Notes: generated from the letters alone by a model not told the origin. 64,000 nt of DNA from Candidatus Doudnabacteria bacterium (GCA_031291995.1 JARLHZ010000039.1:18380-82379); one strand, 5' to 3'. Shown: positions 29,387 to 50,631, counted from the stretch's first letter. Translations and numbers: made by a program.

Positions 29387-29449
29387 TTATTATATCGCGG
29401 GCTGGACAGAGTGTCGAGGATTTAATAAGATTTGTCCTAAGGAGGCAGT

Positions 29450-29957: not shown

Positions 29958-30051
29958 CGCCGCCGACGTTGTTTGTTCGGCCGCGGGTTTTTGTTTTGTC
30001 TTGACAGTGGTACGTATTTCGGGCAATATTTATCCACCTCGGGAGGAATAA

Positions 30052-30240
30052 ATGAAATTGTCGCAGAACTTTCCACAAATGACCATACACGAGTTCTTGA
30101 TTGAATTTTTGGTGGCCATAATGATCATCGTGGTGCCGGTGCCCGTTATCATCGTCGGATGGATTTGGGATCGCCTTGGCGATCTGATAAGTTTAATCCC
30201 GGCTGAACTGCGTGAGAGGGCAAATCGCAGTAACCAATAA
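30052..30240 (+). CDS. small membrane protein
   Basis: SD GGGAGGA before the ATG. One TM. Terminator follows at 30241..30274. Confidence 0.55.
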   Translation: MKLSQNFPQMTIHEFLIEFLVAIMIIVVPVPVIIVGWIWDRLGDLISLIPAELRERANRSNQ

Positions 30241-30274
30241 CCCGGACCGTCGCGATTGACAGGCCGGGTTTTTT
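30241..30274 (+). terminator. Rho-independent terminator
   Basis: Stem CCCGGACC...GGCCGGG followed by TTTTTTATTT. Confidence 0.6.
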
Positions 30275-30458
30275 ATTTCTTGAAGAAAAATGCAATTATC
30301 GGAATATTATCTCTATTGAACAAATTTTCTAATAAACAGCCCATAAATGGGCTAACTACGTAAAGTTAAGGTTTAAGAATATCCAGCCCTTAGTCCCTTG
30401 CCATCTCTTGACTTAGGTGGTAGAATTGTTACTAGTTTGTGGCTACGGATATTAGAAG

Positions 30459-30566
30459 AATACACTGCAGAAAACTACGGAATTTACGGAATTTGATAAA
30501 CCGTACTTCTGAATTCTGTAGTTCCGCAGTTTTCCGTAGTGAGATTAATTTAAATTCCGCAGTTGT
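30459..30566 (+). promoter_or_regulatory. uvrA upstream region with multiple TTCCG(T/C)AG(T) half-sites in direct and inverted arrangement (candidate operator, possibly DNA-damage regulon)
   Basis: AAAACTACGGAA...TTCCGTAGT inverted pair plus ACGGAATTT x2 and TTCCGCAG x2 directly before the uvrA ATG. The same motif is repeated inside uvrC. Confidence 0.45.
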
Positions 30567-33449
30567 ATGCAAGACAAAATAAGTGTCCGGGGAGCCCGGA
30601 TGCACAATTTAAAAAATCTGGACGTGGATTTGCCAAGGAATAAGCTGGTGGTACTAACCGGCTTGTCCGGAAGCGGCAAGTCGTCTTTGGCGTTTGATAC
30701 AATTTACGCCGAAGGCCAGCGCAGGTACGTGGAATCGCTTTCGGCTTATGCCCGACAGTTCATTGGCCTAATGGATAAGCCGGATGTGGACAAAATAGAA
30801 GGGCTGAGCCCGGCCATATCCATCGACCAAAAATCAGCTTCCCATAACCCGCGCTCGACCGTGGGCACGGTTACGGAAATTTACGACTATTTGCGCTTGC
30901 TGTACGCGCGTATTGGCATTCCCCACTGTCCGGTTTGCGGTAAAAAAATTACCGGACAGACTTTGCAGGCTATGGTGGAGCAATTGTTGAATTTGCCAGA
31001 GGGAACCAAGCTGATGCTTTTGGCGCCTTTTGTGCGCGACCAAAAAGGGGAACACAAACATATTTTTGAACAGGTAAAAAAAGCCGGTTTTGCACGCGTT
31101 CGCGTTGACGGCACGGTTATGGATTTAAACGAAGCGCAATCGCTAAACCTCGACAAGCAGAAAAAACATTATATTGACGTAGTGGTAGACCGCATTGCCG
31201 TATCTAAAAACGACCGTTCCCGGATATCGGAAAGTTTGGAAAAAGCTTTGGACTTGGGAGACGGCTTAGTCGTGGTATTGCGGGCTGACGCGGAATCACG
31301 CGGAAATACTGCAACGCGGAACCACGCGGAAAATAATCAAAAAGAAATTACCATGTCGCAGAACTTTGCCTGTCCCGACGGGCATATGTCCTTAAACCAA
31401 CTGGATCCGAGGGATTTTAGTTTTAACAGTCCGCACGGCGCCTGCCCGGAATGCAAGGGCCTGGGCACCAAACTGACAGTGGAGCCCGACCTGGTAATAC
31501 CCAACCAAAGGCTGACTTTGGCCGAAGGAGCCGTGCGCCCCTGGAGCAAAACCACTTCGCGGCTGTCGTGGTATTCCCGCATTATGGAGGCCGTGGCCAA
31601 AGAATACGGTTTTTCCACCAATACCCCGGTTAAAGACCTGCCCAAAAAATTTGTCGATATAATTTTATATGGCACCGGCGACAAAAAAGTCCGCGTCTCG
31701 GGCGAGTTTCGCGGCGGCGAAGGCGAATTTGAAATGAATACCGCATTTGAAGGCGTTATCCCGAACCTCCAGCGCCGCTACCGCGAAACCGATTCCGAAT
31801 ATATGCGCAGTGAAATAGAAAATTACATGCGTGTCCGCCAATGCCAGGTCTGTCTGGGCAAGCGGCTAAAGCCCGAAGTTTTGGCCGTAACCGTGGGCGG
31901 CCGGGGGATTGTGGACGTATCCAACATGCCCATAGATTTAACCGCGGAATTTTTTAAAAATCTGCCCAAAGAGTTGAACGCCAGGGACACGGCCATTGCC
32001 CGGCAAATTTTAAAGGAAATTAACGCGCGCCTGTCGTTTTTATTAAATGTGGGATTGGCTTATTTATCGCTCGACCGTACGGCCGACACGCTTAGCGGCG
32101 GGGAAGCGCAGCGTATCCGACTGGCCACGCAAATCGGGTCCGGTTTGACCGGAGTCCTCTATATATTAGACGAGCCGTCCATTGGCCTACACCAGCGCGA
32201 CAACCGCAAACTCCTCCAGACGCTTAAGGATTTGCGCGATTTGGGCAATACGGTAATTGTGGTGGAGCACGACGAGGAAACCATCCGCGAAGCCGACTGG
32301 GTGGTGGATATTGGCCCGGGCGCGGGCAAGCACGGCGGCGAACTGGTGGCCGAAGGCACTCCCAAAGACATCGAAAAAAATCCCAAGAGCATAACCGGGC
32401 AATATTTGGCCGGCAAGGAATTTATAGAGGTTAGCAAGCGCCGCCGCCCGGGCAACGGGCGCAAGCTGACCATTGTGGGCGCCGAGGAATTTAATTTAAA
32501 AGATATTACTGTGGACATTCCGCTCGGGAAGTTTGTCTGCGTTACCGGCGTGTCGGGCAGCGGTAAATCCACTTTGCTTAACGAAATTCTGGCCAAAGCC
32601 CTGAATCATTATTTTTTTAACAGCAAAGACGAACCGGGCAAGCATAAAAAAATTCTAGGACTGGAACATTTGGACAAAATTATCAACATTGACCAATCGC
32701 CAATCGGGCGGACGCCCCGCAGCAATCCGGCCACTTACACCGGATTGTTTACCCCGATTCGCGATTTGTTTGCCGATACCAAAGAGGCCCGCATGCGCGG
32801 CTATAAATCCGGACGGTTCAGTTTTAACGTTAAAGGCGGCCGGTGCGAAAAATGTTCGGGCGACGGCGTTATTCAGGTGGAAATGAATTTTTTGCCGGAT
32901 GTCTATATTACCTGCGACGAATGCCACGGCAAGCGCTACAACCAGCAGGCGCTGGAAATCCACTATAAAGACAAAACCATTTCCGATGTTTTGGAAATGA
33001 CCGTGGACGAAGCCAAAATCTTTTTTGCCAACTTGCCGCAAATCCACAAAAAACTGGAAACGCTTTCGCAGGTCGGTTTGGGCTATATGAGGCTCGGCCA
33101 AAACGCCACCACTTTGAGCGGCGGGGAAGCGCAACGGATTAAACTGGCTACGGAATTGTCGCGCGCGTCCACCGGGCGGACTTTATATTTGCTGGATGAG
33201 CCGACTACGGGATTGCACTTTGCCGATATTAAACGGCTAGTCCAGGTACTGAATAAATTGGTGGACAAAGGCAATACGGTGGTGGTCATTGAACATAATT
33301 TGGACATGATTAAAACCGCGGACTGGCTAATAGACTTAGGCCCCGAAGGCGGCAACAAAGGCGGCACGCTGGTAGCCGCGGGCACGCCGGAAGATGTGGT
33401 TAAAGTAAAAGCCAGTTACACCGGGCAGTATTTAAAAAAAATGCTGTAA
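30567..33449 (+). CDS. uvrA: excinuclease ABC subunit A (UvrA)
   Basis: 960 aa. Two ABC ATPase modules ([23 protein letters not shown]; [10 protein letters not shown]), Zn-finger cysteines and LSGGEAQRI signatures. Confidence 0.95.
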
Positions 33450-33460
33450 AGATTTACAAA

Positions 33461-33486
33461 AAAATCCCATGTTGGGATTTTTTTGT
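33461..33486 (+). terminator. Rho-independent terminator of uvrA
   Basis: Stem AATCCCA TGT TGGGATT followed by TTTTTG. Confidence 0.7.
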
Positions 33487-34242
33487 TTGCTTCAACTTAT
33501 TATCCTCAGTTTATTCACCATCGATCCACTTTTTTGCCAGAAATAAGCTTATTCGCGTGCAATATGAGGGTATTGCGTAAATTTTACTGAGTGATATAAT
33601 TTCTTTACCTATTGATTTGCCGGATTTTTGAAACACTTGCTCAATTTGGAGCGATTACAATGCTGAGCCCGATTAATTCCTGAAATTAAATTACAATTTA
33701 ATCAACAAGAGCCTGCGGCCGTAATAGCCGCTAAGATGTACGAAGATGCACAAAGGCCACTTTAAAAGCGCGGTACAAAAAGTCTGTTTTTGTATTCCGG
33801 AGTACCGCAATAAGAGGGAAACAGAAGCCCAGAGCTAAAGCAATTTAGCTATGGGCTTTTGTTTTTGTATAAAAGGTCGACCCCTCGCCAAAAAAGGGAA
33901 TACAAAATACAAAGCCCTGTTTTTGAGAACAGGGCGCGAGCCAAAACAGTAAATTTTACGGACTCACTCTTTAGCTGCTTTTGTATTGGAAAGCGAGGCT
34001 TTCCATTAATTTATACGCAAAAAGCGGTCATAAAGATTCAGTTTTGGCCGGTAATTCCGCCAAAAATTCTTCCCGAATTTTTGGCATAAATCCGCGCTAA
34101 GCCCCCAGCAAGGGGCCGGAAAAAGTTCTTGCTCCTGATTGGGGGCGTATAAAAACGTCCCCTAACCAATTCCGCAATTTTAAGGCGGAATTGAAATAAT
34201 CAAATAACCTTGATTATGGAGGGAGGCTAAAAGCGGGTTTAA

Positions 34243-34372
34243 CATCATTGTCATTGCGAGACACGTACCGGACGGTACTGTGGCAAGGGAGTGTCCGCCG
34301 GAGGCGCATCTGCCTCAGGCACGACACCAGACGAAGCAATCTATCGATTGAAGATTTAATAAGATTGCTTCC
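34243..34372. repeat. dispersed palindromic repeat (CATTGCGAG...CGAAGCAATCT / AGATTGCTTCC family), copy 1
   Basis: Shares the GTCATTGCGAG and GAAGCAATCT modules with copies at 37615.., 43020.. and an intragenic fragment at 40795... Terminal hairpin GAAGCAATCT...AGATTGCTTC. Confidence 0.65.
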
Positions 34373-34494
34373 AATTATGCCGAAACTGCGGCGGTCCGGT
34401 CGGATGTTCCTACAACGACAAAAAATCAGTAAATTAGCATAAACCGCACAGGATAAATCTAAACCTTTTTGGTTTATGTTAGAGAAAGTAATAT

Positions 34495-36579
34495 ATGATA
34501 AAAAAATTATTAACCAGACTTGGCATAGCGGGCGGAACTTTGGCGATTATTATTGCCGGGGCCGCGGCCTTTAGCGCGTTTGAGGCGCACGTAGTCAATG
34601 TGACGGCGTCCATCAACAACGCTTTAACGGTGCCGCAGGAGGCAAGCGGTATAAGCTTTGGGGCAATTTTTCCCGAAGAAGTCGCGCACCAGCCGCTGAA
34701 CGTCTCTTTGAGCACTTCGTTTTTGAACGAGTCGCGCGTGGACGACGTTTCGTACATGATTCGCCAAAAGCCGAAATGCGTGAGCGACACCGACCCGAGC
34801 GTGCATCCGCAGGTTACCGAACAAGGGGTGACTTTTGTTTGTCCGGCCGGCTCGCACCAAATGCCCCTGCTCTGCCCGTATTTGTCCAAGCATTTGGTAA
34901 CGGGAAATTGTAATCCCGACCTGCCGGTGGGCACCGAAGGCTCCTGCACCGGCATAGACGCGTTCCATGGCACGGCCAGCTCCACTTTGTGGACGGAAAC
35001 CGTAACCGAAGCCACCCAGGTAAACGGCCACCTTGTAAAAGGAGGCAATACCACCGACAACTGGGACATAGATTTGCACGCGCCCTGCTTTAAAGGAATG
35101 TGCGCCCAGGACAACGTAATTCCTGCCGACTTCCAACCCGACCCCAGCTTAGAAGGCCAAACCTTCGGCTGTGACCTTTGGGTGGAAGTTAACGGCATTA
35201 GCACAACAACGGAAACCGGGACCGGAACTTTAACCGTTACTAAAGTGGTTGTCGGCGGAACCAAAGTAGTTTCCGATTTTCCGCTGTTTGTTGACGGCGC
35301 ATCGGTGACATCCGGAGTTACCGCTACCACAACCGCGACTACCCATCAGGTCTCGGAAACTTCCGACCCCGATTACGTAGGCACCTTTAGCGGCGACTGC
35401 GGCTCAACCGGTCTAGTCACCGTCCCCCCCAACGGAAGTGCCTCGTGTACATTAACCAACACCTTTGACCCACGACCGGGAACTTTGACTATCGTCAAAA
35501 ATACAACCGGTGGCAACGGCACGTTTGACTTTACCGTCACGGGTGCTTCCTCATCGTCTCCAAGCATTACTACGGTAGGCGGTACCGGCACGACGGGTTC
35601 CATGACAGTTGGTTCCGGCACTTATACCGTATCGGAAACTGTACCGGACGGCTGGGCACTGGGCACGGCTACTTGTGATGATGGTACATCCTCATTAACG
35701 GATAATACCATCTCAAACATCAAGATTGCTCCAGCCAGCAATGTTACTTGTACGTTTAACGATAGTAAAAATACGGGAACTATTACAGTTTATAAAGTTG
35801 TAAACAACAATGGCTTAGGTACTTCCACGCCAGCGGATTTCCAGATGCAAATCGACGGTTCCAGTGTGGCGCAAGGAGCAACTACAACCGAAGCCACCGG
35901 CCTGCATACTGTTTCAGAAGCCAATGCCGGTCCCTACGTTACTTCCTTTAGTGGTGACTGTAACACCAGCGGCCAAATAACTTTGGCCACTAAGCAAGCC
36001 GCGGTTTGTGTTGTTACGAATACGTTTCCCATAGCAAGTTTAAAGATCGTTAAAACGGTGAATAATATTCACGGTGGCACCGCAGCCATTTCAAGCTTTA
36101 CCTATTTTGTAGGTTCAACCCAAGTACAAAATAATACAGTAACGAACTTCATCCCTGGAACTTATAATATTTCCGAAGGTGGGGTAAGGGGTTATAGTGC
36201 CACATTTAGTGGGGCGTGTAATGGTGTTAATTCCGTAACTTTGCACGCCGGAGATAACGTCGAATGTGACATAACAAATACCGATATTGCGCCGGTAATC
36301 AGTTTGAATCTCAATATAACCGGTACTGGAACAGCCACAACCAGTGACTTTAATATGTTCATTGATGGGACTTTCGTTCCGCAGAATAGTTCACAATCGG
36401 TGACTTCTAATGCCAGTCACTCTATTACTATTACCGGCAATAACCATACATCAGGCTATACAAATTCCGGAGTCACTGGTACATCAGCATTTGGCGTAAG
36501 TTGTCCCGCATCTCTGCCAGGTAATGTAACTTTGACTCCTGGTGATTCAATCTCGTGTACTATAACGGAAACCCATTAG
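34495..36579 (+). CDS. secreted surface protein, paralogue 1 of the SAFEAHVVNVTA family; conserved Cys-containing N-domain plus prealbumin-like/Cna-B-type repeats
   Basis: N-terminal K-rich start, hydrophobic core and AAAFSAFEAHVVNVTA junction resembling SipW-cognate signals. Conserved blocks FGxxFP(E/Q)E, CPAG..MPLLCPYLSK, WDIDLH.PCFKG.CAQD, GCDLW.EV.GI. C-terminal repeats with GxYTVSE..P.GW.L...C. Confidence 0.8.
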   Translation: MIKKLLTRLGIAGGTLAIIIAGAAAFSAFEAHVVNVTASINNALTVPQEASGISFGAIFPEEVAHQPLNVSLSTSFLNESRVDDVSYMIRQKPKCVSDTDPSVHPQVTEQGVTFVCPAGSHQMPLLCPYLSKHLVTGNCNPDLPVGTEGSCTGIDAFHGTASSTLWTETVTEATQVNGHLVKGGNTTDNWDIDLHAPCFKGMCAQDNVIPADFQPDPSLEGQTFGCDLWVEVNGISTTTETGTGTLTVTKVVVGGTKVVSDFPLFVDGASVTSGVTATTTATTHQVSETSDPDYVGTFSGDCGSTGLVTVPPNGSASCTLTNTFDPRPGTLTIVKNTTGGNGTFDFTVTGASSSSPSITTVGGTGTTGSMTVGSGTYTVSETVPDGWALGTATCDDGTSSLTDNTISNIKIAPASNVTCTFNDSKNTGTITVYKVVNNNGLGTSTPADFQMQIDGSSVAQGATTTEATGLHTVSEANAGPYVTSFSGDCNTSGQITLATKQAAVCVVTNTFPIASLKIVKTVNNIHGGTAAISSFTYFVGSTQVQNNTVTNFIPGTYNISEGGVRGYSATFSGACNGVNSVTLHAGDNVECDITNTDIAPVISLNLNITGTGTATTSDFNMFIDGTFVPQNSSQSVTSNASHSITITGNNHTSGYTNSGVTGTSAFGVSCPASLPGNVTLTPGDSISCTITETH

Positions 36580-36643
36580 AAATAAACCAAAATAGTTTCC
36601 GCTTTAATCGGAAACCAATAAATAAAAGTAATTAAGTAATCCT

Positions 36644-37393
36644 ATGAAAAAATTATTTATGCGCGCGGGGTTGGCGGCTGGGACTTTGGGGCTGATTATT
36701 GCCGGCGCCGCGGCGTTCAGCGCTTTTGAAGCGCATGTGGTCAACGTGACCGCGACCATCAGCAATGCCACGGATATTTCCACCTCGGAAATAACTTTTG
36801 GCAATGTATTCCCGCAGGAAATCCTGCACAATCCCATAACCCTTTCCTTGTCCTCGTCATTCTTGAGCGCTTCCAATACCAGGGCTTCGATTGTAGACTA
36901 CGTTCTTAAACAGAAGCCGAAGTGTATGGCTACCGATCCTGCTAACGCGGTTCAGTTCGCCCAGGTTGTTGATGTTCCCGGCGCAGAAGGCGGTCCGGTA
37001 ACCTTTACCTGCCCCGCAGGCTATACGGAAATGCCCCTGCTTTGCCCGTACTTATCTAAAACCAGCCCGACCCAGGGAGACACCAGCGTGCCATCCTTTC
37101 ACGGAACGACCGATTTAGCTTCCTGGACCGACGCGGTTAGCATGGCCACGGAAGCCAGCGGACAGTTAAGCACAACCGGCGCCACCAGCACCACCTGGGA
37201 TATAGATTTGCACACGCCATGCTTTAAAGGTGAATGTGCCCAGGACTGGGACAGCTTTGTAACTACGGCCAATCCGGCTGTAAACGAGAACGCCTCCATT
37301 ACCCCGGAGTACTACGAGGCAGACCCGGCCGACCAGAATGTGCCAATGGGCTGCGACTTATGGTATGAAGTCAGCGGAATTGGCCAACCATAA
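36644..37393 (+). CDS. secreted surface protein, paralogue 2 (N-domain only)
   Basis: Same signal and all conserved blocks as paralogue 1. 249 aa. Confidence 0.8.
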   Translation: MKKLFMRAGLAAGTLGLIIAGAAAFSAFEAHVVNVTATISNATDISTSEITFGNVFPQEILHNPITLSLSSSFLSASNTRASIVDYVLKQKPKCMATDPANAVQFAQVVDVPGAEGGPVTFTCPAGYTEMPLLCPYLSKTSPTQGDTSVPSFHGTTDLASWTDAVSMATEASGQLSTTGATSTTWDIDLHTPCFKGECAQDWDSFVTTANPAVNENASITPEYYEADPADQNVPMGCDLWYEVSGIGQP

Positions 37394-37484
37394 TTATAAA
37401 CTGATAAATTTTAATTAAGCAGTTTCAACTAAATTCCCCCCTGCTCTTTACCCGGTTCATTATGGGATGAACCGAAAAAGGGCG

Positions 37485-37531
37485 GGGGAGGGTCTGCTTG
37501 TTAATTAATTTTAATGAGCAGGCCCTCCCCC
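37485..37531. terminator. strong GC hairpin (GGGGGAGGGTCTGCT...AGCAGGCCCTCCCCC), terminator-like on the minus strand
   Basis: 15-bp near-perfect stem with an A-run upstream and none downstream on plus. Confidence 0.4.
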
Positions 37532-37614
37532 AAAGGATATAAACCACAATAGACAAAATTGACCCCTCCTTCGCTAAAGCTACGGAGGGTAAGCAAAAAT
37601 TAACGAACAAACTG

Positions 37615-37692
37615 TGCCATTGCGAGGGAGTGCATCCGACCGAAGCAATCTTTATCCTCGATAAGATCGCTTCGGCTGCACTCGCGATGACA
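37615..37692. repeat. dispersed palindromic repeat, copy 2 (complete ~80-nt hairpin)
   Basis: 5' arm CATTGCGAGGGAGTGCATCCGACCGAAGCAATCT is complementary to 3' arm AGATCGCTTCGGCTGCACTCGCGATG. Sits in the 5' leader of paralogue 3. Confidence 0.7.
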
Positions 37693-37712
37693 CCCAGGAA
37701 GGAAAATAAATT

Positions 37713-39143
37713 ATGAAAAAATTATTTATGCGCGCGGGATTGGCGACTGGGACTTTGGGGTTGATTATCGCTGGCGCCGCGGCGTTCAGCGCGTTTGAAG
37801 CGCATGTGGTCAATGTGACCGCGACTATAAGTAATGCCACGGATATTACTACATCGGCAATAACTTTTGGCAACGTGTTCCCGCAGGAAATTCTGCATAA
37901 CCCCGTGACGCTTGCCCTCTCCAGCTCATTTTTGAGCCAAAGCAATACCCGGGCCACCAGCGTGGACTATGTAATCAAACAAAAGCCAAAGTGCGCGTTA
38001 ATCCCCGGGATAACCGGAGACTTGCCGCCATACGCCGAAGTTGCCGATAACTCGGACGGGACTTTTGTCTGCCCCACTGGATACCAAGCTATGCCTCTGC
38101 TTTGCCCGTATCTTTCCAAGACTAGCCCGACAGAAGGCGACACCAGCGTCCCGTCTTTCCATGGCCCGACCGATTTAGCTTCGTGGACCGACGCGGTTAG
38201 CGTCGCGACAGAAGCTACCGGCCATTTGACCGCGGCAAACCCCAGCACCACTTGGGATATTGACTTGCACACCCCCTGTTTTTCCGGAGAATGCGCCCAG
38301 GACTGGAACAGCTTTGTAACCGGCGCTAACCCGGCGGTAACAACTACTTCGCAGCCTTATAACACGGCTTATTACCAGGCCTCCTCTACATATCAGGGTC
38401 TGCCCATGGGCTGCGACCTGTGGTACGAAGTCAGCGGAATTGGTACATCCACGGCTCCGAGCCAAAATATTGTTATGGTCGGCGCGGGGGATCTTGCGAC
38501 GAGCACTGTCGACGCCATCGCAAATCCTACAAAGTGGTTTATGTATAATGATGACAATAACACCATAGACAACACAATCGGATCCTTTGTCTCAGGACCG
38601 GCAACGCCGCCATACGGGACCGGAAGCGTCGAGTTTACATTAGGCGCAAATCCGCTTTCCCGCAAAAATATTGCGACCTATCAGTTCTCCGGTACTTCGC
38701 TTTCCGCCATCACGCAAATGTCTTTTGGGGCTTACTCGCATAGCGGAGTGGCCAGCTCAACCGAATCGCCGTTCTTTAATTTTAACGTCGATTTAGTCAA
38801 TTCAAATACTTTCCAGGGTCGATTGGTTTATGTGCCAAGCACCAATAGCGTAACTGTGCCTCAAGACGCATGGAACAGTTTCGATACCATTAACGGCGGC
38901 AACGCACTGTGGACCTGGTCGCATTTTGCCAGCAATGGCAACAAATGGCCCGATAACAATACCAACCAGTACCGCACATGGAATGATATTAAGACCGCAT
39001 TCCCAACCGCAAAGGTTTTGGTTTCAGATCCTTGGTTAGGCGTTCGCGTAGGCGAACCGGGACCGACAAACTATACCGGCGATGTCAATTTCTTTAGCAT
39101 CGCTACCGGCGGAACGCCGACGGTTTATGAATTCCACAATTAG
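37713..39143 (+). CDS. secreted surface protein, paralogue 3
   Basis: Nearly identical N-terminal 60 aa to paralogue 2, the same conserved Cys blocks, and a 250-aa unique C-terminal domain. Confidence 0.8.
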   Translation: MKKLFMRAGLATGTLGLIIAGAAAFSAFEAHVVNVTATISNATDITTSAITFGNVFPQEILHNPVTLALSSSFLSQSNTRATSVDYVIKQKPKCALIPGITGDLPPYAEVADNSDGTFVCPTGYQAMPLLCPYLSKTSPTEGDTSVPSFHGPTDLASWTDAVSVATEATGHLTAANPSTTWDIDLHTPCFSGECAQDWNSFVTGANPAVTTTSQPYNTAYYQASSTYQGLPMGCDLWYEVSGIGTSTAPSQNIVMVGAGDLATSTVDAIANPTKWFMYNDDNNTIDNTIGSFVSGPATPPYGTGSVEFTLGANPLSRKNIATYQFSGTSLSAITQMSFGAYSHSGVASSTESPFFNFNVDLVNSNTFQGRLVYVPSTNSVTVPQDAWNSFDTINGGNALWTWSHFASNGNKWPDNNTNQYRTWNDIKTAFPTAKVLVSDPWLGVRVGEPGPTNYTGDVNFFSIATGGTPTVYEFHN

Positions 39144-39249
39144 AAGACTCTGTAAAGTGGGCATTTACCGGCCCGTTTTACCGGGGTCAATCTTTCACGA
39201 ATCCTTCGTCTCCGAGAGGGGAGGCGGGGGAGGGTGAGGGATAAATTGT

Positions 39250-39330
39250 GAAAATAAATTGCAAATTAAAAATATCAAATTTCAAACCAAACCAAAATTT
39301 CAAAAGTGATTTTATAAGACTATTAAATAT
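39250..39330. repeat. AT-rich intergenic module R1 (AAATTAAAAAT..TCAAAT..CAAAAT family)
   Basis: Partial copy of the modules at 39876..39960 and 40490..40590. Confidence 0.5.
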
Positions 39331-39336
39331 AAAAGT

Positions 39337-39867
39337 ATGACCGAGCCAATGCCGAATTTTATAAATAAGATGCCTCCGGATTTAAGGCCGGGGATTCAAC
39401 CGAATATAAAGCCCAAACAAAGCCTGGGTATTCAGATGCAGGTTATGGAACCGGTAAAAAAGAGATCCGTGGGCAAAATTATTGCCTGGATAATAATTTT
39501 AATAATTGCCATTATCGCGCTTGTCCAATATCTTAACGCCGCCAAATATCCGGCTTTGGTCCAGGTAATAGACCAGGACCGCATTGGCGTAAACCCCACC
39601 GGTAATGCTTTGGACTTTGGCGATTTGCCACGGGACAAAAGCGCCGTGCGCACCGTAAATTTGGTCAGCAAAGGCAATACCGGCAGTTATATAATTGTCC
39701 TAAAAACGGGCGCTGTGGCGGACCTGCTTACCGTAGATAAAAATTATTTTACCCTAAAGCCCCACACTACTGAGCAACTGCAATTTACCGCCTACATCCC
39801 GAACTCGGCCGCTTATAAATATTATCGGGGAGAAGTATTGATATTCCAGATACCGAAGATATGGTAA
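39337..39867 (+). CDS. membrane-anchored protein of unknown function within the sipW cluster
   Basis: 176 aa with one TM (IIAWIIILIIAIIALV) and a beta-rich extracytoplasmic domain. Confidence 0.6.
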   Translation: MTEPMPNFINKMPPDLRPGIQPNIKPKQSLGIQMQVMEPVKKRSVGKIIAWIIILIIAIIALVQYLNAAKYPALVQVIDQDRIGVNPTGNALDFGDLPRDKSAVRTVNLVSKGNTGSYIIVLKTGAVADLLTVDKNYFTLKPHTTEQLQFTAYIPNSAAYKYYRGEVLIFQIPKIW

Positions 39868-39875
39868 AAGTAATG

Positions 39876-39960
39876 ACAAATTAAAAATTTTAAATATCAA
39901 ATCAAAATCAAATTTTAAAATTAAAACTTTGACTTGATTTGTAATTTGATATTTGATATT
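39876..39960. repeat. AT-rich palindromic intergenic module R2
   Basis: Arms AAATATCAAATCAAAATCAAA and TTTGATTTGTAATTTGATATTT are complementary. About 85% identical to R3. Confidence 0.65.
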
Positions 39961-39969
39961 CAGCAACTT

Positions 39970-40482
39970 ATGCCCACAATTGAATCTAAAATAATGTATA
40001 TGGAGCCGAAAGTAACGCCAAGGCCGGTGGCTATGCGGGTGTTTATTGGCATTGCAAAAGTTGCTTTGTATATCGCTTTTGTCGCGGCCGCGGTTTACTA
40101 CACCCCAAAAATTTTATCGCGAACCCTGCATACCCAGTACCCGCTGGCCACCATTACCTCCGGTTCCATGTGGCCGGTTCTAAAAGTTAACGATTTGATA
40201 TTAATGAAAGGCATAACCGCGGACCAGGCGCAAATTGGCCAGATTATTGTTTACCAAAGCGGCAAGGGCTATGTTATTCACCGGCTAATTCGCTTGCAGG
40301 ACGGAAAATTAATTACCCAGGGAGATGCCAACGACGTGGAAGACGCGCCGGTCAGCCCGAGCCAGGTGGTGGGACGGATTGTCTATGTTTTTGGCAGCCA
40401 TCCGTTCAGGATTCCATATTTGGGAATTGTGGCCCGGAGTTTGGGTCCGACGGTGCAGGAATTGGAGAAGGGGAGGAGTTAA
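39970..40482 (+). CDS. sipW: SipW-type (S26B, Ser/His) signal peptidase I
   Basis: N-terminal TM, catalytic-Ser box SGSMWPVL, then GDLILM and His box YVIHRLI. The ORF-track start at 39934 lies inside the palindromic repeat, so ATG 39970 (MPTIESK) is preferred; the start is uncertain. Confidence 0.8.
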   Translation: MPTIESKIMYMEPKVTPRPVAMRVFIGIAKVALYIAFVAAAVYYTPKILSRTLHTQYPLATITSGSMWPVLKVNDLILMKGITADQAQIGQIIVYQSGKGYVIHRLIRLQDGKLITQGDANDVEDAPVSPSQVVGRIVYVFGSHPFRIPYLGIVARSLGPTVQELEKGRS

Positions 40483-40489
40483 AATTACA

Positions 40490-40590
40490 AATTAAAAATT
40501 TTAAATTTCAAGTCAAAATCCAATTCCAAATTTTTAAATTCAAAACTTTGGCATTGATTTGAAATTTGACATTTGACATTTAGCGCCGGG
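40490..40590. repeat. AT-rich palindromic intergenic module R3
   Basis: Arms AAATTTCAAGTCAAAATCCAA and TTGATTTGAAATTTGACATTTGACATTT are complementary. Paralogue of R2. Confidence 0.65.
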
Positions 40591-40612
40591 TCTTTAGCAA
40601 ATCCACTTTATA

Positions 40613-43009
40613 ATGAACCAAAAACACCCGAAAATTAAAAAAGGATTGGATATCGGGGAGCCGAAAATCGGACGGTTGGTTTTAGCCGTGCCGAAACCTA
40701 AATCTAAGGCCAAAAAATTTGTGGCCATGGAAGACATCAGGGCTTCATTTTTAAACTCAGATAGAGATAAAAAGAAAATAGTAAAAATTACTGGTGTCAT
40801 TCCGAGCGCGGCCGGGGAATCCCTTATACCAAAAAAATTATCAAGCGTCGCGAAAACCCCCGAATTAATTCCGGAAATTGACACGGTAAAACCGGAAACT
40901 AAGCCATTAGTTACGACCCAGCCGTTTATTAGCAGTCTGATTATCCGGCAGAAATCGCGGATTAAACTTTTGCCAAAAACATTTACGGCTTTTAAGCTGG
41001 CCGCCTTGACTGTGTTATGCCTAATTGTGAGCATCCCGGCCATGTCGGCTTTTGAAGCGCATGTGGTAAACGTTACCGCCCAGTTAAAAGAAATTACCCC
41101 GCCAACATTAACGCCGCCCGGGAGTTCCGTGGCCTGGGACGACCATAACGGCGGCACTAATTTGTCCGGAAATATTAATGTGGTAATGAGTGATGGTTAC
41201 ATAGACGCGTCGGATATTTATTATACTTTCGGCACCGGCACCATTGACCCGGGCACAGTGCCCAATCCCGTTTGCGGCCAGACCGGGCCAAACGGCGGCG
41301 GGGGAGACAAAACCCTGCCCCAGCAATTAAGCATAAATGCCGATACCGTAATAAAAGCCATTGCCTGCGATGGGATAACCGGTACTGCTCACAGCAGTTA
41401 CGTAAACACCAAAATTTATTCCTTCGGCCAGCCGGTGCAAAATCTGGTCATTAATGAATTCCTGCCAAATCCGACCGGAACCGCGGCGGGCAACCAGGGC
41501 GTATCGGGCGGGCATAATACCGGCAACGGCGGCGAGTGGGTGGAACTCTACAACAACGGCACCTCCACCATAGATACCGACGGCTTCGTGCTGTATGACG
41601 ATTTTGTTCCCACAACCACTCCAGCCAGCCAAACCTGGACCACCAACAGCGATTTTAATTCCGTGCCTCCGCCCATAGAGGGCAGTACAACCGTAAGCGG
41701 AGGCAGTGTGTTATTGACTGCCGGTTCTTTGAGCGGGACATTTGAAAAAGTTTTTGACATCGGCACCAATAAAAAAGCTTCCTGGGGCAATGTTACTATG
41801 GCCAATACCATTACCGATCCGGCCGCTTTGGTTTGCCTGTCCGCGGCTACGTCCGACGACGGCGTTAATTTTACGCCTTACGTCAGCTTGGGCTTGAATT
41901 CGTGCGCCACTGCTTCCTCAACCTCCATCTCCTTGTCCCTGGCCTCCCTGCCCCAGTCGCGCTTTATTAAATGGCAGGCCGCTTTTAGCCGAAACGATGC
42001 GACCAAGGCGCTAAGTTTGAATTCATTGAGCATCAATTACAGTTTTGTTGATTACAATACTTATCACGAATTGGTTATTACGACCGACAACACCAATAAC
42101 ACGTTGGCGCCGGGGACAACTATTATGGATCCGGGCGACTTTTTGGTGGTGTACCGCGACGGCAATCCCAATTTTGATTTGGACTCGCAGGTTAATGCGG
42201 CATCTTTGTATGACGGCCATTTGTATTTGGGCGCGGGACTAATAGACAGCCATGCCTATGACCTGGGCGGGTCCGTGCCGGTTGGTAATTCCATAGCCCG
42301 CATTCCGAACGGCAGCAGCAACTGGGTCGACCCATGCCCCACGCCCGGCGCGCCCAATACGGCGGACTGTTTAATTCCGGCTAATGTTTCCACCACCACG
42401 CCGGACAGCCTGGCAGACGCCACCTCAACGCCCGATTCAACCTCAACGATTATCAGCGATACCGGCGCGACTTCAACTCCGGACACCGCAACTTCCACGG
42501 ATATTAGTGCTGGCGGCAGCAGCGTCACGGCAACTTCAACTGATGCCACCTCGACGCCCGAAGCTGACGGTGCGTCCGATACTACCATTTCCACTTCCAC
42601 GGACGCATCCGCACAAATCCCGCCGCCGGATAATTCCACAACCACGACTGTTTCAACTACTTCTCCCGATTTATCTACAATTACCACTCCGACGCCAACA
42701 CCAGGGACAACGGTACCCGGCAATAATATAGATCAGGCTCCGGCTGATAATTCTTCCGGTGTTTCCACGCCGCCTGTTTCTCCGCCGCCTGTTTCTCCGC
42801 CGCCTTCATCGGATCAAAGCGCACCGGCCAATCCGCCGGTTGACAATTCCGACTCCTCCAAACAGCCCGATGCCATAACCCCGCCGCAGCAAAACCAACA
42901 GCCCGCGGTTACCCCCGCCCCCACCTCCTCCGGCGGCGATGGCTCGCCTCCGCCTCCTCCGCCTGCCGATCCGACACCAGCCACCGCGGATTCATCTTCA
43001 GGCAGTTAA
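40613..43009 (+). CDS. surface protein, paralogue 4: cytoplasmic N-extension, TM with SAFEAHVVNVTA motif, lamin-tail-like domain, P/T/S-rich tail
   Basis: MSAFEAHVVNVTAQLKEI follows a 120-aa N-region that contains a repeat-derived segment (GVIPSAAGESLIP). LVINEFLPNP...EWVELYNNG matches the LTD fold. Confidence 0.75.
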   Translation: MNQKHPKIKKGLDIGEPKIGRLVLAVPKPKSKAKKFVAMEDIRASFLNSDRDKKKIVKITGVIPSAAGESLIPKKLSSVAKTPELIPEIDTVKPETKPLVTTQPFISSLIIRQKSRIKLLPKTFTAFKLAALTVLCLIVSIPAMSAFEAHVVNVTAQLKEITPPTLTPPGSSVAWDDHNGGTNLSGNINVVMSDGYIDASDIYYTFGTGTIDPGTVPNPVCGQTGPNGGGGDKTLPQQLSINADTVIKAIACDGITGTAHSSYVNTKIYSFGQPVQNLVINEFLPNPTGTAAGNQGVSGGHNTGNGGEWVELYNNGTSTIDTDGFVLYDDFVPTTTPASQTWTTNSDFNSVPPPIEGSTTVSGGSVLLTAGSLSGTFEKVFDIGTNKKASWGNVTMANTITDPAALVCLSAATSDDGVNFTPYVSLGLNSCATASSTSISLSLASLPQSRFIKWQAAFSRNDATKALSLNSLSINYSFVDYNTYHELVITTDNTNNTLAPGTTIMDPGDFLVVYRDGNPNFDLDSQVNAASLYDGHLYLGAGLIDSHAYDLGGSVPVGNSIARIPNGSSNWVDPCPTPGAPNTADCLIPANVSTTTPDSLADATSTPDSTSTIISDTGATSTPDTATSTDISAGGSSVTATSTDATSTPEADGASDTTISTSTDASAQIPPPDNSTTTTVSTTSPDLSTITTPTPTPGTTVPGNNIDQAPADNSSGVSTPPVSPPPVSPPPSSDQSAPANPPVDNSDSSKQPDAITPPQQNQQPAVTPAPTSSGGDGSPPPPPPADPTPATADSSSGS

Positions 43010-43019
43010 CAAACCAGTA

Positions 43020-43125
43020 TCATTCCGAGCGACCCTGAGGGAGCCGCCATCGGCGGCGAGCCGAAGGGGAGCCGAGGAATCCCTTAACTCTGATAATAAG
43101 TTTAATGTTAAGGGATCCCTCCGCT
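43020..43125. repeat. dispersed palindromic repeat, copy 3 (CATTCCGAGCG...GAGGAATCCCTTAAC / GTTAAGGGATCCCTC)
   Basis: Variant of the CATTGCGAG family with a 15-bp terminal hairpin. Confidence 0.6.
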
Positions 43126-44616
43126 CCTCAACAATTCCACTACAGAAGGAATTGTCTCGTCGGTCGGGATGACAGAGAATATAATCAAATGATACCTTTG
43201 TTCAAACATCATCAATTGCTAAAAAAAATCGGCCTGACCGCCCTTACAATTTTGCTCGTGGCCGGCGGCAGTATTTGGCAGCAGCGGGTCTTGCAGGTCA
43301 ACGCCGCGGTTCAGGTTTTGCTGGTCAGCCGCACGGCCATTGCGTTTGGTAATGTCTTTCCGGGGCAGGATCCTTCGGAAACCTACACCGTGCAGCTGGA
43401 TACGTCGAGCAATGGCGCAACATATACAACCGGCCTGACGCCGTTGCCCGGTTTGCAAAATTTATGTCCGTTTTTAAACATCAGCAGTATAGATTCGCCG
43501 GCCGAACCGGACACTTTGGGAGCAGCCACGCTCAAACGTCCCGGTGACACTGTAGACAATTGGCAGGTCCAGTTAAGCGTTCCTGGCATAAAAGGCGAAC
43601 TGTCGCAGGACCACGCCGGCGGCATAATTGTCCAGGGCGGAAATTTCGGCTGTAAAATTACCATTACCACAACTACCGATCCGGGAACGATTATAATTTG
43701 CAAAAACAGCGTGGGCGGCACCGGTACTTTTAACTTTACCGGCGATTTGGGAAAATTTTCCATCCAGACTTCTTTGCCGGCTAAAAATAACGGAGTCAGT
43801 TCAAATGGCCAGCAAACCGACCCCTGCAGCCAACCTCCCTGCCCGGCATCCGATGACCATACCACGGGGAGTAACAGCGGCATTGATGATAAAACCAAAT
43901 GCATTACTAATACCACCGTCACCAACTACAACAGCTCAACAATCATAAACGTGCAAAATACCGGCGCTGGCAGCGGCGGCAATGTTATTGGCACCAATTC
44001 CGGCGACGTCAACGGCGGCAAAAATACCAGCGGCAGCGCCACCAGCAACAGCTCGGTGACCACTTACGGAAATTCCATTAATTCCTCGGTGACAACCGGC
44101 GGCAGTAACGGCAGCGGCAACCAAATTTTTGCCAATCTCCAGTCCGGCAGTTATACCGTTTCGGAAAGCTCAAGTACAAATTGGAGCCTGTCTTCATTGA
44201 CCTGCAAAGATCCGGCCAACAATTCCATGGTGTCAGCCAGTTCCGCGAAAATACAGCTGGATTCCGGCGAAACGGTAATTTGTACTTTTGTAAACGAGCA
44301 AAATACCGGAAAAATTATTATCCGAAAAAAAACTGACGGGGGCAACGGCAGTTTTGGATTTACCGGCAATTTGGGTCAGTTTAATATTACGACCGCCTCC
44401 GGCCTGGGCAGCAAGACCTTTTCCGGACTAACACCCGGCGTTTATACCGTTACCGAACCGGCCGACCAAAAAGGCTGGAGTTTGACTGGTTTGACCTGCA
44501 GCGATCCGGGCGGAAACAGCCAAGCCAACAACCGCAGCGCCATTATCCGCCTGGCGCCGGGGGAGACCGTGACTTGCACGTTTACCAATTCAAAAAAAGG
44601 TAAATTGGGCTCGTAA
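43105..44616 (+). CDS. secreted surface protein, paralogue 5 (degenerate N-domain, SGGN-GDVN-TSG module, prealbumin-like repeats)
   Basis: Retains AIAFGNVFPGQDP and CPFLNIS...DNWQVQLSVPGIKGE blocks. C-terminal repeats GVYTVTEPADQKGWSLTGLTCSD. Confidence 0.7.
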   Translation: MLRDPSAPQQFHYRRNCLVGRDDREYNQMIPLFKHHQLLKKIGLTALTILLVAGGSIWQQRVLQVNAAVQVLLVSRTAIAFGNVFPGQDPSETYTVQLDTSSNGATYTTGLTPLPGLQNLCPFLNISSIDSPAEPDTLGAATLKRPGDTVDNWQVQLSVPGIKGELSQDHAGGIIVQGGNFGCKITITTTTDPGTIIICKNSVGGTGTFNFTGDLGKFSIQTSLPAKNNGVSSNGQQTDPCSQPPCPASDDHTTGSNSGIDDKTKCITNTTVTNYNSSTIINVQNTGAGSGGNVIGTNSGDVNGGKNTSGSATSNSSVTTYGNSINSSVTTGGSNGSGNQIFANLQSGSYTVSESSSTNWSLSSLTCKDPANNSMVSASSAKIQLDSGETVICTFVNEQNTGKIIIRKKTDGGNGSFGFTGNLGQFNITTASGLGSKTFSGLTPGVYTVTEPADQKGWSLTGLTCSDPGGNSQANNRSAIIRLAPGETVTCTFTNSKKGKLGS

Positions 44617-44692
44617 AACAGCTCTTTTTTCGCATTTATGGCCTGTTTTTGGGAATTGTAAAAAAATTATTTGAAAATATGGGAAAAATTGC

Positions 44693-44720
44693 TTGACAAA
44701 GGACGCAATAGGACTAGAAT
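44693..44720 (+). promoter_or_regulatory. sigma-70-like promoter (TTGACA-16-TAGAAT)
   Basis: Consensus hexamers about 210 nt upstream of the adhesin ATG, followed by a terminator-like hairpin. Confidence 0.5.
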
Positions 44721-44842
44721 GAAGAAAAGAAAAAATAGAAAAAAGTCATCTTGGTGCGTGTGAGGGGATGGCTTTTTACTTTTGATTGTCCCGGTAAATA
44801 ATCCCGGGAAAATATTTCGCCATTACTATAGTGCACGTGAGG

Positions 44843-44880
44843 CCCCAAAAGAGACCCAGCGTCTTTTTTGGGTTTTTTTA
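44843..44880 (+). terminator. terminator or attenuator hairpin in the adhesin leader
   Basis: Stem CCAAAAGAGAC...GTCTTTTTTGG followed by GTTTTTTTA, 50 nt before the ATG at 44930. Confidence 0.5.
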
Positions 44881-44929
44881 TTTATTAACAATTTAATTAA
44901 CGCGTAAGAAATTACGCAAGAAAAAATAT

Positions 44930-47900
44930 ATGAGAAAAAAAATTAAATCAATGAAGGCCAGTCTCTTCTTTTCCCTCGCCCTCTCCGCCGTCCTGGCGGC
45001 GGGAAGTTTGTTTGTCCCGGTTTCTCGGGCAATTGCCGCAATTCCGGTTGATGCGGTGCTGGGTGTAACGCAAATTACCGCGGTGCAAACTTACGCAACC
45101 GCGGACGGGAGTTATCAGGACGGATGGAGATGGGTTTTTGATGTCACTGTTCCGGACAGCCAGACGATTTTAAAAATGAAGTTTGCCGATTGGGTAAATG
45201 GCGCAAATACCATTCCTGCCGCCGGCAATATTCGTTTTTATTCAGAACAATCTACAAATGCCTTCGCTTCAACCAGTGCTATTTCCATTAGCGGCGCCGG
45301 TGTGTATAGCGATCTTATGTATTTGAATGGAGGTACAGATCTGAATGTAAATTTGGGTGGGAGACAGATCCAAATTACAGTGGAAGCCCGTATCCCGACA
45401 GGCTCAGCCGGCGGATCTTATTCCACTAGCTACGGTATAAACACTACGGCTCCAGCCACGGTTGTTATAGATACAAATAGCTTGGCGCAAACTTACGACT
45501 CCACGGCAAAAATTGTCAGTGCAACGACCAATCCGTTCGGCCTTGCTACAAGTATTACTTATAACGGATCATTAACGCCGCCAACTCATGTAGGCAGTTA
45601 TGCGGTTTTGGCAACCGTTACTGACCCCGGTTATACAGGTTCTTCACTGGCCACTTTGGTTGTCAGCCCCGCCTCGGTATCGGTCACAGCGGATCCCAAA
45701 ACTAAAGTCTACGACGGATTAACAGCGACAGACCCCACATTGACTTACACGGTCCTCCCGCCTTTGTTTGGCAGTGATACCTTTACCGGCGCGTTAACGA
45801 GGATCTCAGGTGAAATTGTCGGGGTATATCCGATAACACAAGGTACACTCTCTTTGAGCGTGGATTATAATTTTAATTTTATCCCCTCGACTTTTGTTAT
45901 TACCCAAGCTTCAGCTTCGGTTACTTTAAACGAAAGTGACTTGAACCAAACTTATGACAAGACAGGCAAAGTAGTAAGGGTTACGACCAATCCACCCGGT
46001 TTGCCCGTAACTGTCACATATAACGGTTCTGCCGACTTGCCGATTAATGCCGGTACATATGCTGTTGTGGCAACTATCGCGGATCCGAACTATACCGGAT
46101 CAGCGAGCGGCAGTTTGATAATTAATCCGGTGCCTCTGACTGTTACAGCCGTTATCGCCACCAAAGCTTACGACGGGACGACGGACTCCGCTGGGCTGGC
46201 TTCTATAACATCCGGAGCGCTTATTAATGAGGACACCGCGACTTGGACGCAGACATTTGGCGGTAAAGACGTAGGGAGTAATATAACCATAACTCCTTCA
46301 GGAACCATAATTGATGGCAATAGTGGAAAGAACTATATTGTAACCTTTGATAATGCGACCGGTTCAATTACCCCAGCGTCAGCGACAGTTTCAGCTGTCG
46401 GCCACGACAAAGTTTATGATGGCACCACTTCGGCGACAGCTAAGCTAAATGTTACCGGTTCGGTTGGTAACGATGTATTAACAGCATCCGGCACTGCTGT
46501 TTTTGACACTAAGGATGTTGGCAGCAATAAGGTAGTCACTGTTACAGGAATAACTCTTTCGGGAGCGACCGTTGGTGATTATACTTTTAATACGACAGCT
46601 AATACGACTGCCTCTATAAATCCTGCCACTCTGGCCATTACTGCAAACGATGCCGACAAGATCTATGGCGACATTAAGACATTCTTGGGGACTGAATTTA
46701 CAACAAGTGGATTGGTAAACGGAGACGGCGTTACGGCGGTCACATTAATAAGCGCCGGCGCGGCCACAACGGCTCAAGTTACGGGGTCGCCTTATGACAT
46801 TGTGCCAAGCAACGCGCAAGGGATCGGATTAAATAATTACACCATTAATTACACAAAAGGCAACCTGACTGTAACCAAGAAAAATTTGACAGCCACCATC
46901 ACCGCAGACGATAAGCCATACGATGGCAACAATACAGCAAGCATCAGCAATTGTTCTCTCAACAGCCTGGTAAACGGGGACGGGGTAACCTGCGCCGCTT
47001 CCGGCGGGACATTTATTAACGGAAATGCCGGCACCGGCATAATTGTCAGTGCTAGCGTGGATCTGGTCGGCGATAGTGGAAATTATACCGTTACTTCTCC
47101 GGTAACAACGGCAGCCAACATAACCGCGTTGCCGATTACGGTAACTGCCGTAACCGATACCAAAGTTTACGATGGTACAACCGCAGCCTCGGCGGCAACA
47201 GTCGTGCCGACGATAACAGGGTCGCTTGTTGATGGAGACGTTGCGAATTTTACCCAATCTTTTGCTGATAGGAATGTCGGAACTACAAAGACTTTAATTC
47301 CCGCTGGTACGGTGAATGATAAAAATGGTGGTAATAATTATGCGGTGACATTTGTTAACAATACAAACGGCGTAATTAAAGCCAAAGACTTAACAGTAAG
47401 TGCTACAGGTGTGGACAAACCTTATGACGGTACAATGGCCGCCACGGTTACTCTTACCGACAATAGAATCTCAGGGGATGTCTTTACCGATATTTATACC
47501 GGCGCAGTTTTCAGTGATTCTGGCGTAGGTGATGGTAAAACGGTTAGCGTATCAGGCATTTCTATTAGCGGCACCGATGCCGGAAACTACAATTTTACTA
47601 ATACTTCTGCAGCCACAACTGCTAATATTACCCCGGCTACTTTAACCATTACGGCAAATAGTACATCTAAGGTTTATGGCGTTCTGGCAACATTTGGTGG
47701 GAGTGAATTCACTCACAGCGCTTTGTTCGGAAGTGACGACGTTACATCCGTAACTTTAACAAGCGCCGGTATGGATGCCACAGCACCAGTTTTAGGATCA
47801 CCATATACGATTGCCGCAAGCAATGCAGTCGGTACGGGATTAAGCAATTATACAATAACGTATAAAAACGGAAATCTGACAGTGAATCCAAAAGTACTTC

Positions 47901-49138: not shown

Positions 49139-49158
49139 TTATTAACCCCCGAACGATT

Positions 49159-50577: not shown

Positions 50578-50631
50578 ATTTATCAAAATAAGTAAAGCCA
50601 GGACGTCTCTCGTGGTCGTCCTGGCTTTTGT

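Follow-up and report, generated by a model that had tools for sequence, protein, structure and literature searches.

Within the Bacillus subtilis operon tapA-sipW-tasA, and likewise in the sipW-calY locus of B. cereus, a signal peptidase of the S26B class with a Ser/His catalytic pair is encoded among its own substrates. Deposited mature TasA (PDB 8aur) begins AFNDIKSK, and TapA 44–190 (PDB 6qay) begins AFHDIETF. The mature N-terminus of TapA is A44 and residues 44–57 are its minimal active unit, while residues A28–S41 of TasA are the donor strand, mobile in the monomer and β in the filament (PMC10151520). Here we describe a seven-gene cassette, encoding an S26B-class peptidase among secreted proteins with a common 13-residue module, in a 64,000-nucleotide stretch of DNA from Candidatus Doudnabacteria bacterium (GCA_031291995.1 JARLHZ010000039.1:18380-82379; the whole stretch is referred to as the window). 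The logic of this cassette is known, its substrate family and architecture are undescribed, and it is probably a new surface fibre or adhesin assembly system. On balance, we favour a reading in which the peptidase serves the neighbouring module-bearing proteins, cleaving them before the module, and the freed N-termini assemble the subunits non-covalently.

No description of the cassette or of its motif was found in the searchable literature: short motif strings occurred only in unrelated papers, and two longer ones in none. The sole relevant item was a passing statement that homologues of PF12389 (Peptidase_M73) occur in Patescibacteria, a family different from the conserved core domain described below.

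A conserved gene cassette in Patescibacteria

At 34495–44616, the plus strand carries seven open reading frames (ORFs) in head-to-tail order, designated A, B, C, T, S, D and E, with the coordinates given in an initial annotation of the window:

34495..36579, plus strand: A, C-type substrate, 694 aa; signal peptide, AFEAHVVNVTA module, six-Cys immunoglobulin (Ig)-like core, prealbumin-like (SpaA_2/SpaA_4) repeats
36644..37393, plus strand: B, C-type substrate, 249 aa; minimal form, limited to signal peptide, module and six-Cys core
37713..39143, plus strand: C, C-type substrate, 476 aa; signal peptide, module, six-Cys core and a C-terminal domain of ~230 aa without family match
39337..39867, plus strand: T, single-pass membrane protein, 176 aa; transmembrane (TM) helix at 45–67
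39970..40482, plus strand: S, signal peptidase I of the S26B (Sec11/SipW, Ser/His) class by TIGR02228 and SEC11A/C alignment
40613..43009, plus strand: D, motif-only protein, 798 aa; N-terminal extension, TM helix, module, other domains and a Ser/Thr/Pro-rich tail
43105..44616, plus strand: E, divergent paralogue, 503 aa; signal peptide, reduced Cys-poor core and SpaA_4 prealbumin domains

The longest ORF for S begins with TTG at 39934, and the alignment of the repeated leaders described below agrees with the ATG at 39970; the likely start of E is Met29, at position 43189. Protein B matches a hypothetical protein from a Candidatus Doudnabacteria metagenome-assembled genome at 100% identity, which places the window in the Patescibacteria, or Candidate Phyla Radiation (CPR). 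Proteins A to E had been taken for five paralogues with a common N-terminus and Cys domain; they are instead three full members (A, B and C, hereafter C-type), one motif-only protein (D) and one divergent protein (E).

With a profile of the core family, 639 clusters (50% identity) were retrieved from 1.84 billion representatives. Scanning of genomes gave 76 distinct loci, nearly all labelled Patescibacteria, with a few automatically labelled bins under other names; the lineages comprise Doudna-, Pacei-, Parcu-, Giovannoni-, Ryan-, Wildermuth-, Taylor-, Azam-, Uhr-, Vogel-, Harrison- and Portnoybacteria. Synteny was counted over the 37 related loci with lengths of 15 kb or more; in 37/37, a core paralogue is followed on its own strand by homologues of T and S, an arrangement that is not due to chance. 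The order is fixed, with one to four core paralogues followed by T and S and usually then by D-type and/or E-type genes (C+TSD 17, C+TSDE 8, C+TSE 5, and a few variants). The co-occurrence of peptidase and paralogue family, which the initial annotation had raised, also holds when loci are approached from the peptidase side, and among the S homologues retrieved, the most distant (39% identity) belongs to a cassette of three C-type genes, T, S and D; for another S homologue, uvrC-uvrA lie upstream of the cassette as they do in the window. Little space separates T, S and D in related loci (median possible gaps of 11 and 2 nt, with many –4 overlaps), the D gene often overlapping the peptidase stop codon. 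An operon of the form C(n)-T-S-D-(E) is conserved in Patescibacteria, and the region contains one copy of it.

The signal peptidase S

By sequence, S belongs to the S26B class, the same class as Bacillus SipW, but is not its orthologue. Against TIGR02228 (archaeal-type signal peptidase I), S reaches 76.5 bits, above the cutoff of 51.85; its 31.3 bits on NF046067, the equivalog model for Bacillus SipW, fall short of the cutoff of 190. Human SEC11A and SEC11C are its only sequence relatives among all PDB chains, with no LepB-type chain detected at E ≤ 1. The SGSMWP, VIHRLI and QGDANDVED boxes of S align with SGSMEP, IVHRV and KGDNNxVDD of SEC11A/C; the catalytic pair is Ser/His, the His of VIHRLI replacing the LepB lysine, and the GDxN..D box is aligned. 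The Ser/His assignment made in the initial annotation from the first two of these boxes is thereby borne out. The contrary outcome that it had named, clustering with LepB-type enzymes, was not observed, the score on the bacterial LepB model TIGR02227 being 27.8 bits against a cutoff of 47.

We regard it as highly improbable that S is the general signal peptidase of the organism, with an incidental position and with motif proteins processed like other exports. Secreted proteins encoded downstream in the window do carry ordinary signal peptides, a point in its favour, but the synteny strongly disfavours this explanation, S being collinear with the cassette in all of the long loci over many Patescibacteria lineages, and from the peptidase side as well. 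In related loci, the S gene also often overlaps with the T and D genes. Moreover, the cassette contig of locus L004 (JBGQJN010000013.1) encodes a LepB-type signal peptidase on the minus strand, at offset 9193 of the reverse complement (205 aa, E 2e-22 to B. subtilis SipS, with the box GDNRLRSSDSR, matching GDNRxxSxDSR); there at least, the genome has S on top of a LepB-type enzyme. These data support the proposal that S is cassette-specific, and that the C-type proteins and D make up a cognate substrate set defined by the module.

The shared 13-residue module

Four ORFs, A, B, C and D, carry the module SAFEAHVVNVTA, with the consensus A-F-E-A-H-V-[VI]-N-V-T-A-x-I. The nearly identical N-terminus that had been ascribed to all five secreted proteins is thus confined to four, E having a different one. 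At the DNA level, the copies form family D3:

34576..34614, plus strand: module in A, A-F-E-A-H-V-V-N-V-T-A-S-I
36722-36760, plus strand: module in B
37791-37829, plus strand: module in C
41048-41086, plus strand: module in D

The four copies differ solely at third codon positions, so the identity of the module is selected at the protein level; a DNA-level repeat or gene conversion was ruled out on the same grounds. In an alignment of 158 C-type and 48 D-type ORFs anchored on the motif, the module is near-invariant (F-E-A-H-[VI]-[IV]-N-V-T-A-x-I), with H at +3 in 205/206 sequences and A at +2 in 203/206. Upstream of F-E-A-H, the sequences read P(-5), M/L(-4), F/L(-3), A/S(-2) and A(-1). Past the module, C-type proteins run through E-N-A-L-x-V into the core, while D-type proteins diverge just after the module isoleucine into Pro-rich linkers and unrelated domains, so that the 13 residues of the module stand as a unit of their own. 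Conservation is far higher in the module than in the core (mean column identity of 35% in an alignment of 45 family members), and the alternating hydrophobic pattern of the module is strand-like. The N-V-T of the module is also an N-x-T glycosylation sequon, its N being present in 205/206 sequences and its third position occupied by T or S in about 98%.

By analogy with the mature N-termini AFNDI of TasA and AFHDI of TapA, released by Bacillus SipW, S is predicted to cleave at [A/S]|AFEAH..., which would leave a conserved N-terminal strand of about 13 residues; mature B would then begin at A27.

The six-cysteine core of the C-type proteins

The N-termini of A, B and C consist of a short basic stretch and a hydrophobic signal, followed by the module. 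The Cys domain of ~200 aa (CPAG..LLCPYLSK, WDIDLH.PCF.G.CAQD, GCDLW.EV), described in the initial annotation as common to five ORFs, stands for these three proteins; it is absent from D, and E has only a remote, Cys-poor version. Pairwise identity over the core is 46–47% for A against B or C, and 74% between B and C. Six cysteines and about 30 further positions are invariant in the 45-member alignment. The cysteines probably form three disulfides, with C94-C123, C134-C237 and C193-C198 as the predicted pairs, and the retention in E of cysteines solely at the two positions equivalent to C134 and C237 in the alignment suggests that these two pair with each other. Disulfide oxidoreductases are enriched in CPR (PMC6744442), which fits the three-disulfide reading.

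The view that this domain lies outside any named family was upheld: no Pfam or NCBIfam match to the core was found in the full window proteins, Pfam searches over the 45 core-family members gave no recurrent family, and the core-family profile had no match among PDB sequences at E ≤ 10. In several family members the core match is split, profile positions from ~70 onward aligning ~170 residues later, and for P0023, P0025, P0027, P0030, P0031 and P0037 it covers only ~70% of the query. DUF642 (PF04862) is present in several of the split-core homologues, where it appears inserted inside the core, not appended; the core thus appears, from these alignments, to tolerate insertions at a loop near profile position ~70.

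Downstream of the core, the divergent C-terminal modules noted previously were recovered in part: prealbumin-like SpaA_2/SpaA_4 domains are present in A and E, while the lamin-tail assignment in D is sub-threshold (30.0 bits against a Pfam gathering score of 34.3). Elsewhere in the family, homologues of the core carry VWA, LTD and DUF642 modules. B, the minimal form, is a candidate major subunit. None of the 206 module-bearing proteins, A included, has an LPXTG-like motif or a second hydrophobic or TM segment, which implies that retention at the surface after cleavage is non-covalent. A sortase-dependent pilus was rejected on the LPXTG count; the sortase encoded in the window (60811–61416) is 16 kb away, adjoining a VWA/DUF11 protein.

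The conserved histidine of the module admits another explanation, in which cleavage after AFEA would expose an N-terminal His that chelates metal together with invariant core residues (the invariant His/Asp/Glu include H153, D188, D201, D238 and E242), making these metal-binding proteins and not fibre subunits. An N-terminal His exposed by signal cleavage is a general metal-chelating device (PMC12537917), and the near-invariance of H at +3 and A at +2 would suit such a site, as would the several invariant potential ligands. We nevertheless consider it very unlikely. For cleavage at this point, position -3 would be aromatic and position -2 Glu; in D-type proteins the His is present without a core to supply the other ligands; there are no structural matches to lytic polysaccharide monooxygenases (LPMOs) or cupredoxin-like proteins; and the AF-x-x N-termini of SipW substrates indicate cleavage three residues earlier. 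An LPMO-like histidine brace was rejected for want of structural support.

The proteins T, D and E

T has a variable cytoplasmic N-terminus, then the TM helix, a conserved NAAKYxALVQVI strand and an Ig ectodomain of ~110 aa, in agreement with the single-TM protein previously noted beside the peptidase. Members of the T family give sub-threshold Pfam matches to ASH, Cep192 and PapD-like domains, and 2/35 T homologues give a sub-threshold match to WxLIP_PGBD (E 0.046). Weak matches to Pfam Wzz (chain-length determinant; best E 7e-4) were seen for 19/35 T homologues in alignment A3, most likely arising from the TM-proximal region.

In eukaryotes, Spc3/SPCS3 is the single-pass partner of Sec11 in the signal peptidase complex, and Sec11 needs it. 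T could by comparison be an accessory subunit of the peptidase, and not an anchor or chaperone for the substrates: it lies directly upstream of S in every locus, often translationally coupled, and it consists of a single N-terminal TM helix followed by a β-sandwich ectodomain of ~110 aa. Bacterial SipW and archaeal Sec11-type enzymes, however, are not known to depend on a partner, and we judge this role for T to be unlikely.

In D, the module starts at residue 146, behind an extension of ~130 aa and one hydrophobic or membrane helix; the extension is kept at the protein level with locus L003. D is without the Cys core, and its likeness to A, B and C is confined to ~37–44 residues covering signal and module. 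A second D subtype, encoded after the peptidase (e.g. in L009, L014, L015, L022, L054 and L079), has ERxPxxCxALSxGYW(K/R)NHEGC, a further cysteine motif without family assignment, after the module; the D protein of the window carries a IQIDPPVLTPPG-type domain at this point instead of the ERxPxxCxALS-type cysteine motif.

E is without the module, the corresponding region reading ...QQRVLQVNAAVQVLLVS..., and its N-terminal region in the alignment reads ...VLQVNAAVQVLLVS... in place of the module. E shares 22–23% identity with A, B and C (E 1e-7 to 1e-10), scores 21.8 bits on the hidden Markov model of the core, and keeps cysteines at 2/6 core positions (LCPFLN, GCKI). Its signal peptide is ordinary and ends VNA|AVQVLLVS, a VxA| site.

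Predicted folds

The structure of B was predicted as a monomer using AlphaFold2 with 45 homologues. The model has a predicted local distance difference test (pLDDT) score of 93.1 and a predicted TM-score of 0.80, and comprises a signal helix at residues 2–25 and a β-rich core with pLDDT ≥93. Segment 26–42, the module region, is non-β with a lower pLDDT of 65–82, resembling the donor strand of TasA in the monomeric state. The core of the C-type proteins and the T ectodomain are both predicted to be Ig sandwiches of the PapD/ASH/MSP-like type, the former with large insertions, and the modelled core is not clearly a TasA jelly-roll. A Foldseek search of the PDB with the B model gave no match at E ≤ 1e-3; the weak top matches were to the TasA fibre (E 0.023, TMq 0.34), the FimA rod, AggA, CfaB and cannulae, and these resemblances of the model to fibre subunits are suggestive at most.

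A proposed route of processing and assembly

In the processing and assembly reading that we favour, the C-type proteins and D would be exported via the N-terminal hydrophobic segment directly preceding the module. Following cleavage by S, the freed strand-like N-terminus would dock into the Ig-like core of another subunit, or into the Ig domain of T. The C-type proteins would be TasA-like, combining the module as a handle with an acceptor domain and variable adhesin modules, while D would be TapA-like, with the handle only, acting as initiator or tip. T may serve as membrane anchor or chaperone and E as an accessory protein, and the three disulfides would stabilise the extracellular core. We infer strand-mediated assembly from the lack of any anchor in the 206 proteins, the portability of the module, the TasA-like behaviour of the modelled monomer, and the constant presence of Ig acceptors in the C-type core and T. 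The C-type and D proteins could, as we hypothesise, form fibres.

Several observations weigh against this reading. Neither TIGR04088 nor any other NCBIfam model matched four N-terminal segments of 50–60 residues at E ≤ 10, and the sole likeness to TasA and TapA is the A-F-x-x start. Taking either Ala of [AS]-A as P1 puts a bulky residue at -3 (M/L) or at -2/-3 (F), which is atypical for type I enzymes. In the T model, the strand equivalent to the module sits within T's own sandwich, and on the modelled folds the module is just as readily taken for an ordinary edge strand within its own molecule. Finally, hhalign of the core family against the T family gave no significant homology (probability of 0.4%), with only ENALxV...FG aligned.

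The proteins may alternatively be monomeric surface or secreted adhesins, with S still a dedicated peptidase and the module serving only as a recognition or processing determinant, or as an edge strand; the products would be free or loosely bound to T, and there would be no polymer. The C-terminal fusions (VWA, LTD, SpaA-like, DUF642) are typical adhesin modules, the core model is confident as a monomer (pLDDT 93), no structural match to fibre subunits was significant, and the intramolecular strand of the T model points the same way. On the other side, the 13 post-signal residues are conserved far beyond the need of a cleavage-site preference, the module is kept on D-type proteins with an unrelated following domain, none of the module proteins has an anchor, and a set of one to four paralogues with a handle-only protein better fits modular assembly. 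We hold purely monomeric adhesins to be rather unlikely, while giving them serious weight.

A more specific form of the strand-mediated assembly reading can be put forward only tentatively, and with somewhat less than even confidence. Many Patescibacteria, of the Doudnabacteria and Paceibacteria/Parcubacteria lineages, may build a hitherto unrecognised chaperone-free surface filament or modular adhesin array in which an AFEAHV[VI]NVTAxI donor strand, unmasked by the Sec11/SipW-type peptidase, joins disulfide-stabilised PapD-like subunits head to tail, with T at the base and D and the adhesin paralogues at the tips.

Comparison with fibre and surface-protein systems

The parallel with tapA-sipW-tasA drawn in the initial annotation holds for its logic, namely a dedicated peptidase, cognate substrates and an accessory membrane protein, as judged from synteny and from the AF-x-x N-termini (PMC10151520), and fails for membership of the substrates in the TasA/camelysin family. 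The cassette shares with the Bacillus operon an S26B Ser/His peptidase encoded among its own substrates; mature N-termini of the form A-F-x-x and ~14 strand-forming residues, here as predicted from sequence; a handle combined with an acceptor domain, in TasA there and in the C-type proteins here; a handle on a different domain, in TapA and in D; and tight coupling of the accessory and peptidase genes. Unlike in the Bacillus operon, the core lies outside the Peptidase_M73/TasA family: PF12389 had no match in the five window proteins (E ≤ 0.1) or in the 45 family members (E ≤ 10), and TIGR04088 is likewise without a match. The predicted PapD/ASH/MSP-like sandwich with its large insertions and three conserved disulfides also sets the cassette apart, as do one to four diversified paralogues with adhesin modules, the extra single-pass Ig-domain membrane protein T, which has no counterpart there, a D that often has a cytoplasmic N-terminal extension, a peptidase scoring 31 bits against 190 on the SipW equivalog, and a host among the Patescibacteria.

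Archaeal TasA-like filaments (Pyrobaculum ABP pili, and Pyrodictium cannulae of the DUF1102 type) consist of chaperone-free β-sandwich subunits with an N-terminal donor strand, an organisation that may also apply here. There is no sequence relationship to them, however, and structural scores are at the level of generic sandwiches. No dedicated peptidase gene was identified near the Pyrobaculum ABP operon (PMC9245690).

With chaperone-usher pili, including PapD-like chaperones and pilins, the cassette has in common the concept of strand complementation between Ig domains. It has no usher, outer membrane or two-domain periplasmic chaperone, T being membrane-anchored with a single domain, and chaperone-usher systems lack the dedicated signal peptidase present here. 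A chaperone-usher system was rejected for lack of an usher or outer membrane.

In the WxL clusters of Enterococcus and Lactobacillus, a C-terminal TM segment anchors the WxL-interacting protein (WxLIP; DUF916/DUF3324). As membrane-anchored scaffolds, WxLIPs retain partner surface proteins through non-covalent contacts (PMC10599100), comparable to the role proposed for T. Unlike these clusters, the cassette has no WxL domains, and WxL clusters have no associated signal peptidase.

DNA features and genomic neighbourhood

The spacers immediately upstream of T, S and D each contain an AT-rich direct repeat of 58 nt:

39257-39314, plus strand: 58-nt direct repeat, upstream of T
39872-39929, plus strand: 58-nt direct repeat, upstream of S
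40483-40540, plus strand: 58-nt direct repeat, upstream of D

The repeat has exactly three copies in the 64-kb window, with none expected by chance; those preceding S and D continue for longer and have TTGAYATTTGAYATT in common. In most related loci, T, S and D are packed or overlapping, unlike the repeat-bearing spacers here, and insertion of a repeated leader or promoter in this lineage may account for the repeat. A scan for promoters and terminators gave counts no better than shuffled sequences; a plausible terminator follows E at 44844–44872. Searching Rfam with 30000–46000 gave no matches.

Upstream of the cassette, uvrC (minus strand) and uvrA at 27401–33449 are syntenic with positions 1–4961 of locus L080 (Ga0137465_1000001), another long Patescibacteria contig, indicating that the chromosomal position of the cassette is stable in this lineage. 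Neither a convincing ORF nor an Rfam match was seen in the interval of ~1 kb between uvrA and A (33450–34494); such a length is unusual in a compact CPR genome, and the interval contains a terminator-like hairpin at 33987–34005. Downstream, at 44930–62927, there is a run of other surface-protein genes with ordinary signal peptides, outside the cassette. These encode a 1402-aa YDG/MBG-repeat protein, a CHB_HEX_C/InlB-B-repeat protein and a 1192-aa protein with a peptidoglycan-binding domain; farther downstream are a VWA+DUF11+DUF7507 protein, then the sortase mentioned above and a type II/IV secretion ATPase (61704–62927).

Implications for Patescibacteria

Patescibacteria represent a large share of the diversity of bacteria, and attachment to other cells is believed to be their way of life. 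To our knowledge, almost nothing has been described of their surface machinery apart from type IV pili. The cassette is conserved in order and content over many of their lineages, and the class of its peptidase is otherwise found typically in archaea, in eukaryotes and in the Bacillus biofilm operon. In our experience, the module is among the most invariant short segments in secreted protein families, and it offers a diagnostic peptide: semi-tryptic peptides of the AFEAHVINVTAK/R type could be searched for in existing groundwater metaproteomes. If the module is a donor strand, SipW-primed strand-exchange assembly would extend to a non-TasA fold, and there would be a concrete target for studies of host attachment in uncultured bacteria. 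If the filament reading is true, the product of the cassette would be a donor-strand pilus of a third kind, evolved independently of the others, and these episymbionts would have in it a candidate organelle for host attachment.

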